Positions 39,124 to 53,049 are shown, counted from the stretch's first letter. The stretch: 53,049 bases of DNA from a virus (IMGVR_UViG_3300042197_000954:1-53049), one strand, 5' to 3'. The notes: generated by a model not told the origin, from the letters alone. Numbers and translations are program-made.

Positions 39124-39260
39124 ATTTAAGAGGAACTCCTCAGGATATCCCGGTAGGAAATTTGTCTGGAATTTCAGATGAATACCTCAGGAGTCGGACC
39201 GGTCTGACTATTGGAATTTTGTCTGGAAAAATGGTGTATGACGTTTGCCATAATGTGAGA

Positions 39261-39452
39261 AATTCCAGACAAAATTCACCATCAAAAAAAAACAAGGATG
39301 GTGAGGGAAATTCCAGACAAAATTCACCATCAAAAAAAAACAAGGATGGTGAGGGAAATTCCAGACAAAATTCACCATCAAAAAAAAACAAGGTTGGTAA
39401 GGGAAATTCCAGACAAAATTCACCATCAAAAAAAAACAAGGATGGTGAGGGA
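39261..39452. repeat. 48-bp tandem repeat x4
   Basis: aattccagacaaaattcaccatcaaaaaaaaacaaggatggtgaggga at 39261, 39309, 39357, 39405. Confidence 0.95.
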
Positions 39453-39505
39453 AATCCAGACAAATTTTCAAACCCCTGACAGGTGGTTCACCTGTTGTTA
39501 CAAAG

Positions 39506-39525
39506 TGTGGATAACTTGTGGAAAA
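39506..39525 (-). promoter_or_regulatory. tandem DnaA boxes (TTATCCACA + TTTTCCACA on minus strand); repeated upstream of many cassettes
   Basis: TGTGGATAA at 39506, 41543, 42991, 44289, 44666, 45209, 46240, 47655, 51970. Confidence 0.7.
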
Positions 39526-39594
39526 CTTTTTTGTGTCAATGGTTGTATGTAATGATTTTATTATTATATTTGTATTCACTTAAACCAATTTATT

Positions 39595-39867
39595 ATGTCA
39601 AAATTCATTTTTGTTCACCCATTTGTTCCAAGTGGAACACATGGTAATGAAGGGACTTTCTTTGAGAAAGACCTGACACCCTCGGAAGAGGAAACTATCT
39701 ACTCAATTTTGGGAATCAACCCAAAAGAAGAGATGGTAATGGTGTACGATGGTAGTACCCCAATTTATCACCCAAAGAGTAGGTGTGAGTGGGATGGGGA
39801 AAACGAAGAGTTGGTGTGGAAGGAGAAGGATGAGAAGTTGAGAAACCTACAAAGTTGGGTGGTGTAA
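39595..39867 (+). CDS. cassette ORF, hypothetical
   Basis: ATG after the promoter leader aaaccaatttatt; terminator follows. Confidence 0.75.
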   Translation: MSKFIFVHPFVPSGTHGNEGTFFEKDLTPSEEETIYSILGINPKEEMVMVYDGSTPIYHPKSRCEWDGENEELVWKEKDEKLRNLQSWVV

Positions 39868-40191
39868 CCCCCAATGAAACCCCCTACCGAAAGGTAGGGG
39901 GTTTTTTATTTGTGGGGATTAAAATCGGAAACGCTCGTATTCGTCATTTTGTCTGGAAAAATGGTGTATGACGCTTGCCACAATGTGGGAAATTCCAGAC
40001 AAAATAAACAGGGGACGGGTGGTTCACCGAAGGGTGTATGACACCTATTACGATGGGGGGAATTCCAGACAAATTTCCAAACCCCTGACGGGGGTGGATA
40101 ACTTGTGGAAAACTTTTTTCTGTCAATGGTTGTATGTAATACATTTGTTCTTATATTCGTATGTTCATTTAACCCTTAAACCCTTAACCCT

Positions 40192-40485
40192 ATGTACACC
40201 AAAGAACAAATCCAAACCAAACTCCGTACCAACCAAAGGTGGATTGAAAGGACTCTCGTGGTTCTTTATCAAAGACAGACCTCCGATGAACAGACCACAG
40301 GTCAGACCCGTGAGTTCAATGGTATCGGTTTTAATGGACCCGATTCTCGTTACCTATCGTGGTGTTCTCGTTGGATTCTAGATGGTAACCACCTCAACCG
40401 AAAACACCTTGAAAAGTGTAGTTCTCGTCTTCCCAAGTATTGGAGACAAGTCCAAGAGTTGATTAAAGAGAAGAGTGGGAATTGA
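40192..40485 (+). CDS. cassette ORF, hypothetical phage protein
   Basis: promoter/terminator context; LYQRQTSDEQ...NGIGFNGPD...KYWRQ. Confidence 0.8.
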   Translation: MYTKEQIQTKLRTNQRWIERTLVVLYQRQTSDEQTTGQTREFNGIGFNGPDSRYLSWCSRWILDGNHLNRKHLEKCSSRLPKYWRQVQELIKEKSGN

Positions 40486-40620
40486 CCCCTTCTTTGTTGT
40501 TCAAAGACCCTCACCGAAAGGTGGGGGTTTTTTGTTTGTGGGGATACGAAAAATGAACGGGATGGGACAGGTGGAATTTTGTCTGGAAAAAGGGTGTATG
40601 ACACTTATTATGGTAAGGGG

Positions 40621-40760
40621 AATTCCAGACAAAATAAACAGTGGATGAGTGGTTCACCGAAGGGTGTATGACACCTACTACGATGGGGGGAATTCCAGAC
40701 AAAATAAACAGTGGATGAGTGGTTCACCGAAGGGTGTATGACACCTACTACGATGGGGGG
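40621..40760. repeat. 70-bp exact tandem duplication bounded by AATTCCAGAC
   Basis: 40621-40690 = 40691-40760. Confidence 0.95.
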
Positions 40761-51037: not shown

Positions 51038-51243
51038 ACTCACCCCCTTTAATGAACCCTCACCGAATGGTGGGGGTTTATTGTTTGAGGAGAATCCCTC
51101 AGAGCTACCGGGATGTTGGATTTTGTCTGGATAATTCCAGATAAAATTGGAGTCGGAATTCCGGCGTACCAAAATTGTTTTTTCAATGAATGGTTGTGTG
51201 TAATGATTTTCTTCTTATCTTTGTATCGTTAAACCAATAAGAT

Positions 51244-51792
51244 ATGGAAAATACTTTAATCATTCATCCAAAGGATAAAACAACACAATTTTTGGATATT
51301 GTCTATAATCCAATTCCAAACAAAACTATCATAACAGGTGGTCTTTATAGGAAGGAAATCCACGAGTTAATTGAGGGACACGATAGAGTTATGATGTGTG
51401 GACACGGAAGTCCTGGCGGTTTGTTTTCCGTTGGACGATTTCCAAGTAATAACTTTTATGTCATCGACGATAAGTCAGTTGGTGTTCTCAAAAAGAAAAA
51501 CAATTCGATTTTTATCTGGTGTAATGCCGATAAATTTGTGAGAAACCACAACCTTAAAGGTTTCTTTTCGGGAATGTTTATCTCTGAACTTTACGAGGCT
51601 ACATATTGTGGTGTAAATTCAAACCAAGATGATGTTGATGAAAGTAATTACGGATTTTGTAATCTTTTATCCGAATGTATCAACGAACCGATTGAGAATA
51701 TGTATCAAAGTATAATTGAGGGGTATGGTAAAATTGCAAAAAGAAACTCCGTCGCAAAGTATAATCACGACCGATTGTATTTATTGGTTTAA
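51244..51792 (+). CDS. putative clan CD (caspase/gingipain-fold) cysteine peptidase-like protein
   Basis: MMCGHGSPGGL and IFIWCNA His/Cys motifs after hydrophobic strands. Confidence 0.5.
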   Translation: MENTLIIHPKDKTTQFLDIVYNPIPNKTIITGGLYRKEIHELIEGHDRVMMCGHGSPGGLFSVGRFPSNNFYVIDDKSVGVLKKKNNSIFIWCNADKFVRNHNLKGFFSGMFISELYEATYCGVNSNQDDVDESNYGFCNLLSECINEPIENMYQSIIEGYGKIAKRNSVAKYNHDRLYLLV

Positions 51793-51815
51793 CATTTGAA
51801 AGGGTAGGTCGTGAT

Positions 51816-51848
51816 TGGGGATACTCACAAGGTATCCCCATTTTTTTT
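51816..51848 (+). terminator. intrinsic terminator (different family)
   Basis: tggggatac...gtatcccca followed by T8. Confidence 0.8.
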
Positions 51849-52061
51849 GCTAAAAATTATAGGGGCCCAGCAAGCGGCCCGTGATTTTGTCTGGAAATTT
51901 GTATTACATTCGTGGGGAATTCCAGACAAAATTCAAAACCCCTCAGGTGGTTCACCCGTTGTTATAAAATGTGGATAACTTGTGGAAAACTTTTTTATAG
52001 AAAAGGTTGTATGTAATGATTTTCTTATTATATTTGTATCGTTAAACTAAACCCCTTAATT

Positions 52062-52481
52062 ATAGCATCCTATACACTTGACCCCGAAGACCCAAGACAA
52101 GATGACAACTTGGGTAAAATGTTATGTTTTCACCGAAGATACTCTTTGGGAGATAAACACGGCTACAAATCCTATGACTATAATAGTTGGGAGGAAATGA
52201 AGTCCCATATTATTAAAGACAACGATGTATTAGTTATCTTACCACTATATCTATACGACCACTCTGGAATTACAATGAATACCACTGGATTCGGTTGTCC
52301 CTGGGATAGCGGACAAGTTGGTTGGATTTTTGCAACAAAGAAAGATGTTAGACAATGGTTTAACCTTAAAAAGATAACTAAACCTTATATTGATAAGGTA
52401 AGGGAAATTCTTTTGGGAGAAGTGAAGATGTATGACCGATACTTAACTGGTGAACACGAGTACGAGGAGATAGAAGACTAG
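52062..52481 (+). CDS. cassette ORF, hypothetical phage protein; ATA at expected start
   Basis: DPEDPRQDDNLGKMLCFHRRYSLGD, LYLYDHSGIT, CPWDSGQVGWI. Confidence 0.7.
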   Translation: MASYTLDPEDPRQDDNLGKMLCFHRRYSLGDKHGYKSYDYNSWEEMKSHIIKDNDVLVILPLYLYDHSGITMNTTGFGCPWDSGQVGWIFATKKDVRQWFNLKKITKPYIDKVREILLGEVKMYDRYLTGEHEYEEIED

Positions 52482-52562
52482 CCCGTGTTTTTGTCTGGAA
52501 AAAAAAGATTTGGATAATTAAAATTTTGTTTCTACATTTGTATTCAACTAAACCCATATTAT

Positions 52563-52778
52563 ATGTTCATTAAACTCACATTTTATCCGTCAAATAAACC
52601 CACGATACTCAATGTTTCGTCAATAAAATCAATTTACCAAGTTTATAACAAACAAGGTGGTGAATACAACACAAAAATTGAGTTCAATAATGGTTCTTAT
52701 GTTAATGTATATGAAACACTTGATGAAATTCTAATGGTTTTACCAAGCGAGAAAAGGGAGTGGGGGTTAAGTGAATGA
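52563..52778 (+). CDS. FlbD-like small protein
   Basis: MFIKLT...ILNVSSIKSI...TKIEFNNGSYVNVYETLDEI. Confidence 0.5.
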   Translation: MFIKLTFYPSNKPTILNVSSIKSIYQVYNKQGGEYNTKIEFNNGSYVNVYETLDEILMVLPSEKREWGLSE

Positions 52779-53049
52779 TTGAACAATTTTCCACTCCGAG
52801 AAACCCTCACCGAAAGGTGGGGGTTTTTTATTTCACCAATTTGAGCTTGGGCAACATGTTTGTCATTTTGTCTGGAAAAGGGTGTATGACATTCCAGACA
52901 AAATCCCCTGGCGTGTTTTTGCTGTAAATCACATTCCAGACAAAATCCCCTGGCGCGTTTTCGCTGTAAATTTTTTAGCGCGTTTTTGCTAGTTATCCCA
53001 CATTTTGTCTGGAAAAGGATGTATGACATTCCAGACAAAATGTGGGGTT

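Follow-up and report, generated by a model that had tools for sequence, protein, structure and literature searches.

We describe a repeated DNA element in the virus record IMGVR_UViG_3300042197_000954, whose 53,049 bases are the whole IMG/VR entry and are hereafter called the window. CheckV estimates the completeness of the record at 17%, which implies a full genome of roughly 300 kb. The element is built from near-invariant 11-nucleotide arms, TTTTGTCTGGA (L arm) and its reverse complement (R arm), which are mostly arranged as inverted repeats around a centre of variable length. They lie in the spacers of an array (39000..53049) of about 22 small genes that all run in one direction on the + strand, and the window terminates within this array. 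We tentatively interpret the element, with a little less than even confidence, as a set of operator-like sites in double-stranded DNA for a putative phage-encoded regulator of early promoters; the same sites would also be preferred joints in a shuffling of gene cassettes like that of the promoter-early stem-loops (PeSLs) of T4-type phages. We found no prior description of the element in print, supplementary files being outside the scope of the search.

The arms are confined to an array of probable early genes

When up to one mismatch is allowed, TTTTGTCTGGA and its complement match the window 58 times, always between 39000 and 53040, with 25 copies as written and 33 as the reverse complement. 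Shuffled versions of the window contain 2.5 +/- 1.6 matches (at most 7), and none of 100 reaches 58. Exact copies number 47 (21 forward and 26 reverse), compared to none for a control in which the pattern was reversed. The original prediction, made from the window's sequence, had described nearly invariant arms with a centre of variable length, and this is borne out over an even wider range of centres, from 4 to 110 nucleotides (nt). The shortest is found at 51121/51136 and the longest at 48117/48238, with centres of 16 nt at 48729, 49308, 52866 and 53003, of 25-27 nt at 42282, 46968, 47585 and 51885, and of 35-36 nt in thirteen units. Also correct was the claim that the site is present in almost every spacer: among the 21 spacers that bear a promoter, two have L arms only (42729 and 52489) and one an R arm only (39000). 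Arms are missing from the three junctions at which genes overlap or are separated by very little sequence (41113, 48461-48501 and 50091).

The spacers have a common layout. From 5' to 3', they are composed of a terminator (CCCTCACCGAAAGGTGGGGGTTTTTT), a variable linker of 32-43 nt, the L arm, the centre, one to five R arms, a further 43-58 or 75-77 nt, the promoter, about 25 nt and the ATG. The centres fall into classes of 4, 16, 25-27, 35-36 or 110 nt and usually contain a second motif, GTAT[GT]ACA. The unit is repeated more than 20 times, and it is the whole spacer of 200-300 bp that belongs to the repeat family. All 15 copies of the terminator in the array (up to four mismatches) lie on the + strand. 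The promoter pattern TTG-N18-20-TAnnTTTG has 22 matches on the + strand of the array, compared to one on each strand in the other 39 kb, and corresponds to the -33/-7 promoter type of Bacteroides and Flavobacterium (PMC2483708). Since this host-type pattern is concentrated in the array, we infer that the array probably holds genes read by the unmodified host polymerase, that is, early genes, and that the host belongs to the Bacteroidota. The 20 array proteins that were scanned lack functional matches in Pfam and PHROG, where we detected only weak similarities to DUF4314 and DUF3846 and four PHROGs of unknown function. A 187-amino acid (aa) array protein has no usable match in a protein atlas; with 81% identity to its homologue in the relative G005 (see below), it is the best conserved protein of the array.

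Each phage lineage has its own arm

Megablast of the array found no match among 50,697 phage records. With tblastn, two of three window proteins had no match in these searches and the third had one distant match, to Salicola phage SCTP-2. The database searches therefore left neither a cultured relative nor any annotation to build on. The exact inverted repeat is present in three other viral contigs that are nearly identical to one another (G002, G003 and G004). Between the window and G004, the DNA of the genes is about 70% identical; the arms, the terminator and part of the 8-mer GTAT[GT]ACA are invariant. A more distant relative, G005, is 288 kb long and 92% complete. It is syntenic with the window, of which positions 215-52,481 map in inverted orientation to about 281.7-229.4 kb, and the protein identities range from 27 to 82%.

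All 10 exact arm copies of G004 lie at 102.8-106.6 kb of its 107-kb record. The genome-wide count of the arm that the original prediction had proposed could be run in G005, where the copies are not evenly spread: 10 of the 11 exact copies of the arm of that lineage occur at 220-236 kb. Like the window, G002, G003 and G004 end inside the array, which is internal in G005. We read this as assemblies of these phages breaking at the repeated spacers, so that the repeats explain the broken ends.

We gathered further jumbo-phage contigs by scanning for the common terminator. The terminator is constant across the lineages while the arms differ. The arm of the window and G004 is TTTTGTCTGGA, and the arms of the G005 group are AATTGTTTGGC / GCCAA(A/C)CAATT. 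Contigs L024 and L017 have TTGTTTGGCA-nn-TGCCAA(A/T)CAA, compact palindromes whose arms are 2 nt apart. In L013 the arms are TTGTCTTACAA / TTGTAAGACAA, and in L022 and L032 they are TGCGTAAGACG / CGTCTTACGCA. L024, L017 and L033 have array proteins in common with the window. Because the lineages have the terminator and the promoter type in common and each has arms of its own, what keeps the arms constant would be either a phage-encoded partner or pure self-complementarity.

The same searches returned two sets of matches that we discarded. One isolated inverted repeat in L009/G001, which has no protein in common with the window, was taken as chance. The pattern GGTGTATGACAC-N5-35-TCCAGA was found at 36 loci of viral contigs, and all of them are single matches, taken as chance, apart from the known relatives L010, L011 and L012. 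A scan of 185,579 species genomes detected 32 sites, all of them isolated, in phyla that are unrelated, and no array anywhere, and hence the arm element is not a host repeat.

Single arms stand at fixed distances from promoters

In G005, the promoter pattern matches 35 times on the array strand at 205-250 kb, compared to 33 times in the remainder of the record on both strands. At 16 of the 35 array promoters, the 45 nt ahead of the -33 TTG contain an L-type motif, and at only one they contain the R orientation (16 L vs 1 R). Elsewhere in G005 the L motif occurs at one of 33 promoters, with a background of 2.8% per 45-nt stretch. The gaps between the arm and the -33 element are 9, 10, 10, 19 (ten times), 24, 30 and 30 nt, and the A-rich intervening sequence has diverged. 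In L022, where the promoters look like the sigma-70 type, the gaps are 19, 19, 19, 29 and 30 nt, and the two solitary L arms of the window lie at gaps of 19 (42729) and 10 nt (52489). Steps of about 10 nt place these arms on one face of the helix. Their centres, near -50, -60 and -70, resemble those of class I activator sites.

These observations can be assembled into a model. A phage-encoded protein would bind the arms sequence-specifically as double-stranded DNA, and this putative regulator would control the host-RNA-polymerase promoters (Bacteroidota sigma-A type) of the early array from sites that resemble an operator or an upstream activating site. Each arm, with the core TTGTCTGGA, would be one recognition unit that could act alone beside a promoter, with a single orientation and helix face. 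Most copies in the window would instead work as inverted pairs further upstream, around the second oriented motif GTAT[GT]ACA. As to the sign of the regulation, activation, which the class I-like positions would suit, and shut-off repression are equally possible. The original prediction had named a protein-binding site as one of two possible functions. We favour this part of it through indirect evidence, namely lineage-specific arms, single sites that are oriented and phased, and variants without compensation; the confinement of the arms to an array of host-type promoters likewise counts, together with their lineage specificity, in support of an operator. So do the lack of arrays in species genomes and the precedents of Cluster A mycobacteriophage operators, phi29 p4 and Aca repressors (see below).

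Another way of explaining arms beside promoters is that they belong to a promoter themselves, as elements recognised by a phage sigma factor or a modified RNA polymerase in a second, middle-phase wave of transcription, with GTAT[GT]ACA as the core element conserved across lineages. Sigma-70-family proteins (PF04542) are encoded at G005:142709-142915, G005:40895-41080 and G004:15743-15910, with E-values of 7e-19 and 1.2e-5, the latter below the family cut-off. Their presence fits a switch from early promoters read with the host sigma to later ones read with a phage sigma. The 8-mer has properties that would suit such a core. All 21 copies in the window are inside the array on the + strand, which makes the motif as array-specific as the arms, and 22 of the 23 copies in coding orientation in G005 fall in the array (205-250 kb), so that lineages with unlike arms have it in common. 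In addition, the arms vary between lineages as -35 elements for a co-evolving sigma might. The spacing, however, does not describe a promoter. The 8-mer begins 5-8 nt past the L arm and the R arm follows 1-20 nt further (19-20 nt in 13 of 21 cases), with no fixed -35/-10 geometry, and the gap classes of 9-10, 19-20 and 29-30 nt place no common second element downstream of the arm. An inverted copy would also be useless in a promoter. We consider this explanation quite improbable.

The 8-mer is the core of GTGTATGACAC, the bulged palindrome that the original prediction had correctly noted as usual in the centres. The inner GGTGT-ATG-ACACC folds with a stem of 5 bp and a loop of 3 nt, a geometry known from N4-type hairpin promoters; in the array, host-type promoters precede every gene, and no virion RNA polymerase was found, though no search aimed at one was made. 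N4-type hairpin promoters have a 5-7-bp stem with a 3-nt loop and are used by the virion RNA polymerase.

Variants of one arm are not matched in its partner

Both strands of the units fold strongly (z from -4 to -8.6), with stems of 11-18 bp. Folding and covariation had been proposed together as a check on the original prediction, and only the folding is pronounced. Covariation among 13 aligned units is 0.071 compared to 0.064 in shuffles, and 79 of 500 shuffles reach the observed value. The 11 variant positions of the window consist of six mismatches, four G-T pairs and one Watson-Crick pair, the last in a chance arm-like sequence inside a gene. No variant position is compensated in G004 (0/7), G005 (0/12) or L024 (0/23). 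Moreover, the same position of the half-site is degenerate in either arm, as TTTTRTCTGGA in the lineage of the window and as TTGNTTGGC in G005. Since the variants are uncompensated and covariation remains at the level of shuffles, self-complementarity is not the property that is conserved in the arms.

This result also bears on a possible function in RNA. In transcripts that read past the upstream terminator, the repeat could form an RNase III-type processing or decay stem, or an antiterminator site, that insulates the cassettes from each other. A stable stem on the transcribed strand, 32-43 nt past a strong terminator, would agree with such a role. So would the G-T combinations at 9 of the 18 variant positions of the window and G004, which become G-U pairs on the + strand, and the inner hairpin, which shows one double change from G-C to A-T with G-T intermediates. 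Against it, two L-arm variants create A-C on the + strand, mismatches recur in other lineages, and covariation is not raised. Transcripts from a promoter with a solitary arm beside it do not include the arm, which is upstream of the start site. Furthermore, all 15 Rfam matches with E-values up to 1 are below the gathering score, and nearly all of them cover the terminator or the ends of genes. The only one that overlies an inverted repeat, mir-8250 at 52994-53047, reaches 26.5 bits compared to a gathering score of 80. An RNA element is in our view distinctly unlikely. Intrinsic terminators have a G+C-rich stem and then a run of U. We also rejected the inverted repeat as such a terminator, because on both strands its stem begins with four T and ends with four A, and the true consensus terminator lies 32-43 nt upstream.

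Spacers exchange cassettes

The original prediction had alternatively seen in the repeat a recombination site that drives the array. Over 18 units, the similarity of the 32 nt that precede the L arm is uncorrelated with that of the centre (Mantel r 0.04) and with that of the 32-nt block behind the final R arm (r 0.01); between the centre and the downstream block there is a weak correlation (r 0.34). The blocks to the left and to the right of the L arm thus have unrelated histories. Gene order differs as well. In G004 the homologues of 41125 and 42445 have traded places relative to the window, and in G005 the homologue of 44755 lies ahead of that of 41633 and the homologue of 48461 ahead of that of 43084. 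In Logan contigs from four other lake samples we found 62 joints. Among 15 of these 62, most are in spacers, three of them immediately 5' of an L arm; the exceptions are one to the left of the array, one within gene 46330 and one that joins the ends of the paralogues 46330 and 41633. Joints at repeats are ambiguous, and the Logan joints therefore serve as evidence of a variable cassette order and not of an enrichment at arms.

Tandem Repeats Finder (TRF) identified local duplications of 48 bp x4.3 (39259-39464), 70 bp x2.6 (40590-40773) and 42 bp x2.0 (52889-52971). The original prediction had all three bounded by the right arm. This applies to the 48- and 42-bp tandems, which open and close with an R-arm segment, and not to the 70-bp tandem, which opens at the centre motif; where a tandem array is taken to begin and end depends largely on phase. 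Both R-bounded tandems can be written (R + x)n + R, the product expected of unequal exchange between a pair of R arms.

Exchanges of this kind may not need an enzyme of their own. Tyrosine recombinases (PF00589) were not detected in any of five records, consisting of G005 and four fragments, with 14 of 14 control genomes positive; as the window covers 17% of its genome, this negative does not extend to that genome as a whole. Serine recombinases (PF00239) and Y1 transposases (PF01797) were equally absent from G005 and the four fragments, and the controls responded. About 26 and 40 bp of near-identical flanking sequence, in the terminator and promoter blocks, are available for ordinary homologous exchange. 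Because the whole spacer is repeated, ordinary homologous recombination of the PeSL type suffices for the exchanges. The idea of a recombination site that drives the array is thus half right: the histories of the blocks, the shuffled order and the joints in spacers support an exchange of cassettes at these spacers, and no recombinase dedicated to the site was detected in the records searched. Under the operator model, no other short segment of the spacer is as conserved as the arms, which would therefore be where homologous exchange between spacers resolves, with tandem duplications of R arms, mosaic spacers and a shuffling of cassettes like that of T4-type PeSLs as the outcome.

The same data have been considered for a fold-back DNA site, a single-stranded hairpin or cruciform recognised by a recombinase or nuclease that reads both structure and sequence, as in attC/IntI, REP/RAYT or the ends of IS200/IS605; the enzyme would excise, insert and duplicate cassettes at the arms. 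Constant arms around a free centre of 4 to 110 nt, the strong folding of either strand, single L arms followed by several R arms, and the R-bounded 48- and 42-bp tandem units are all expected of such a site. The unrelated linker before the L arm and the variable order of cassettes among relatives and strains agree with it too. We nevertheless hold it to be unlikely. The three enzyme families are missing from a 92%-complete relative, the arm variants are never compensated (with one or two recurrent mismatches in the arms of G005 and L024), and covariation does not exceed that of shuffles. A fold-back site would also leave the single arms at fixed phase beside promoters unexplained, and it is hardly needed where each cassette comes with a promoter and a terminator and near-identical flanks permit homologous exchange.

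Finally, the arms may have no trans-acting partner, being either passengers of a duplicated spacer that gene conversion homogenises or what is left of an ancestral palindrome. The whole spacer is indeed a repeat family with frequent exchange, and fixed distances could stem from descent. Within the spacers, however, the adjoining linker, centre and downstream blocks vary far more than the arms do, and the arms are invariant between the window and G004 despite the divergence of the genes. Each lineage retains its own version of the arm in both orientations, and the 19-nt gap persists where the intervening sequence has diverged. That the arms are mere passengers is therefore much to be doubted.

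Evidence that weighs against an operator

Several results do not favour the operator model. No candidate for the binding protein was identified: the 20 array proteins scanned have no DNA-binding match in Pfam or PHROG, and the helix-turn-helix family PF01381 is absent from the five records searched. A proximal, phased arm is present at only 2 of 21 promoters of the window, where most arms lie in distal inverted pairs that are not phased to the promoter (the distances from the last R arm to the -33 element show no helical phasing). The 25 arm pairs of the window include 17 that are perfect (11/11), and some stems reach 14-18 bp. The span of the centre, 2 nt in L024 and 4-110 nt in the window, is hard to reconcile with one dimer and would be tolerable for a fold-back structure. 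L013 and L022 have no detectable protein in common with the window in the loci compared, and the similar geometry of their arms may be analogy rather than homology. Lastly, 12 of 21 window promoters have a different proximal element, TTGTGGA[AT]AA, which equals the arm minus 2 nt and has a gap of 17-18 nt in nine cases. It is because of these points that the fold-back explanations stay alive.

Nine spacers contain an 11-nt tandem, TGTGGATAACT|TGTGGAAAACT, placed 17-18 nt upstream of the -33 element (39506, 40094, 40794, 41543, 44289, 45209, 46240, 47655 and 51970), which resembles the L arm minus two bases. Its first unit, TGTGGATAA, reads like the consensus of a DnaA box, and no binding of DnaA is claimed. 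As a DnaA box the sequence was rejected, since in all nine spacers it is half of the 11-nt tandem within a conserved block. Two further comparisons were dropped. The arm and the -33 region have TTGTnTGnAA in common, a weak likeness of 8 out of 13 positions. The distances between paired arms, 15, 27, 38 and 47 bp, correspond to 1.4, 2.6, 3.6 and 4.5 helical turns; as they represent four related classes, the apparent half-integral spacing is numerology and was not used.

Likeness to known systems

PeSLs are described in T4-type phages (Arbiol et al. 2010, PMC2839356; Comeau et al. 2014, PMC4122927). They are repeated intergenic cassettes with a host-type early promoter and a stem-loop terminator, a description that the spacer as a whole answers. 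In both systems the surrounding region is plastic and rich in small genes without known function, and exchange shuffles cassettes between relatives. A further trait of PeSLs is the formation of encapsidated mini-circles. The spacers of the window differ in having a third conserved element, the lineage-specific inverted repeat with GTAT[GT]ACA, between the terminator and the promoter, which falls outside the two-part PeSL definition. Their promoters are in addition of the Bacteroidota -33/-7 type.

The stoperators of Cluster A mycobacteriophages are described (PMC6550527) as single asymmetric 13-bp sites across a temperate genome that are bound by the immunity repressor. As with the arms, the operators and stoperators are many short intergenic sites with a consensus specific to the lineage; some are in promoters and most are not. 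Their orientation with transcription recurs in the single arms of G005 (16 L vs 1 R), and most copies in the window are inverted pairs. According to the same account, the Cluster A consensus tracks a co-evolving phage protein. In contrast, our sites occur in a single early array, most of them as inverted pairs. No candidate repressor was identified here, and we found no integrase in the near-complete G005. The phage regulators p4 of phi29 and, at anti-CRISPR promoters, Aca likewise bind inverted repeats that lie within strong early promoters or upstream of them, and thereby switch or damp early transcription. The p4 site is reported with a fixed spacing of 15 bp (PMC1904284), compared to the 4-110 nt of the centres here, and Aca operators are compact, whereas the present site recurs at more than 20 promoters with a variable centre.

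The original prediction had likened the repeat to attC sites and REPINs, with the remark that its sequence matches neither, and tests of membership in these families lent no support. Integron attC sites and REP/REPIN elements do have inverted conserved arms, a variable centre, a cassette or intergenic location and the capacity to form hairpins. The cassettes of the array, unlike those that attC sites flank, are self-promoted (22 consensus promoters and 15 consensus terminators), and not promoterless and read from one shared promoter. An attC site has imperfect arms, conserved extrahelical bases and a GTTRRRY core. The records searched have no IntI-type gene (PF00589, 0/5 records), the majority of arm pairs are perfect (17/25) and have no extrahelical bases, and the arm TCCAGACAAAA lacks GTTRRRY. 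As to REP/REPIN, there is no RAYT-type gene (PF01797, 0/5 records), and the copies are confined to one array and not dispersed in the 185,579 species genomes. Miniature inverted-repeat transposable elements (MITEs) were discarded too, as the TTGGA flanks at 49308 and 51121 reflect homologous spacers and not independent target duplications.

If a regulator of the arms exists, the concepts of operators, stoperators and PeSLs would extend to lytic jumbo phages of Bacteroidota. A broader proposal, rather unlikely as a whole, is that lytic jumbo phages of freshwater Bacteroidota run their early genes under a private promoter code. A co-evolving protein and the arm of its lineage would license or shut off 20-35 host-type promoters at once, inverted pairs would be high-affinity or bridging sites, the phages would fall into immunity-like groups, and the arms would double as joints of cassettes. 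If this is true, exclusion or cross-activation of co-infecting relatives would create immunity-like groups among lytic phages, and early-gene cassettes would be exchanged between genomes at conserved joints. In any case, the arms are a sharply defined and countable cis-element that marks the early array in giant phages with mostly uncharacterised early genes. In practice, they may help to spot early or host-takeover genes in metagenomic phage contigs and may provide a bait for the regulator.

Individual sites along the array

The array starts with a solitary R arm (39000..39010), detected by the motif count, 45 nt upstream of the first -33 TTG (39056). Immediately before it is a stretch rich in G runs and C runs (38905-38999). 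The same layout of a G-rich tract and an R-type arm is found in the G005 lineage, where the arms differ, at the array start of G005 (near 235.6 kb) and of L033 (near 385). Such a stretch before the first arm might mark the array boundary. The next segment, 39056-39125, is an 'empty cassette' in which a consensus promoter is directly followed by a consensus terminator with no open reading frame (ORF) between them. A contig from another lake fuses 46335 to 40501, which would create the same join of promoter and terminator.

As the original prediction had it, the left arm precedes one or more right arms, up to five of them. The largest group (39160..39465) has an L arm with one mismatch at 39160, an L arm at 39217 and five R arms (39264, 39312, 39360, 39408 and 39455) that coincide with the 48-bp tandem. 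It is followed by an L arm with two R arms (39994 and 40064) at 39947..40074, an L arm at 40577 with three R arms (40624, 40694 and 40764) in the 70-bp tandem (40577..40774), and again an L arm with two R arms (41422 and 41492) at 41375..41502. Further along, an L arm at 46051 has two R arms, at 46097 and, with one mismatch, at 46189 (46051..46199), and an L arm at 52866 has two R arms (52893 and 52935) in the 42-bp tandem (52866..52945).

The simple inverted repeats differ mainly in their centres. The 27-nt centres at 42282..42330, 46968..47016 and 47585..47633 and the 25-nt centre at 51885..51931 contain GTATTACA. At 42908..42964 and 43533..43590, the L arm is the variant TTTTATCTGGA and the R arm is uncompensated. 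A 35-nt centre with GTATGACA is found at 44192..44248 and another of 35 nt at 44592..44648, the latter with no consensus terminator ahead of it. Centres of 36 nt occur at 45111..45168, which folds on either strand as a 14-bp stem with an inner hairpin of 5 bp and 3 nt, and at 45504..45561. The repeats at 48729..48766, where ATGTATGACAT abuts the R arm, and at 49308..49345 have 16-nt centres. The compact repeat with the 4-nt centre (51121..51146) has the variant R arm TCCAGATAAAA. At the extreme end of the window (52997..53046) there are perfect arms of 18 bp (52997-53014 and 53029-53046) around 14 nt, exactly as originally predicted. The unit at 48117..48248 is degenerate: its L arm, with one mismatch, overlaps the T run of the terminator, and the R arm is 110 nt away.

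Two single L arms on the + strand precede promoters, at 42729..42739 (19 nt upstream of the -33 TTG at 42759) and at 52489..52499 (10 nt upstream of the -33 TTG at 52510). An exact L arm on the + strand at 50321..50331 is within an ORF of 311 aa (50102-51037), where an exact 11-mer is unlikely by chance.

Other features of the array and the window

The array contains two pairs of paralogous genes, 41633-42196 with 46330-46875 and 45674-45967 with 47723-48073. An ORF of 43 codons with its own consensus promoter and terminator (45299-45430) lies within an apparent double spacer (45022-45673). Palindromes of the type TTTCCGGAAA are repeated in the A/T-rich divergent region between the genes on the - strand and the array (window 38760-38900; L012 5948-6012). 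Elsewhere in the window, adjacent paralogous glycosyltransferase genes (11330-12775 and 12651-13907; phrog_24687) and a protein of 801 aa (2658-5063) that joins methyltransferase, HtrL/YibB and glycosyltransferase-2 domains suggest a sugar-modification module.

Parts of the array stretch 39500-49400 are present in 24 DNA runs from freshwater, lakes and sediment, which belong to 17 studies; no RNA run is among those listed. Most of these runs contain about a third of the sampled words of the array, which fits conserved spacers with variable cassettes.

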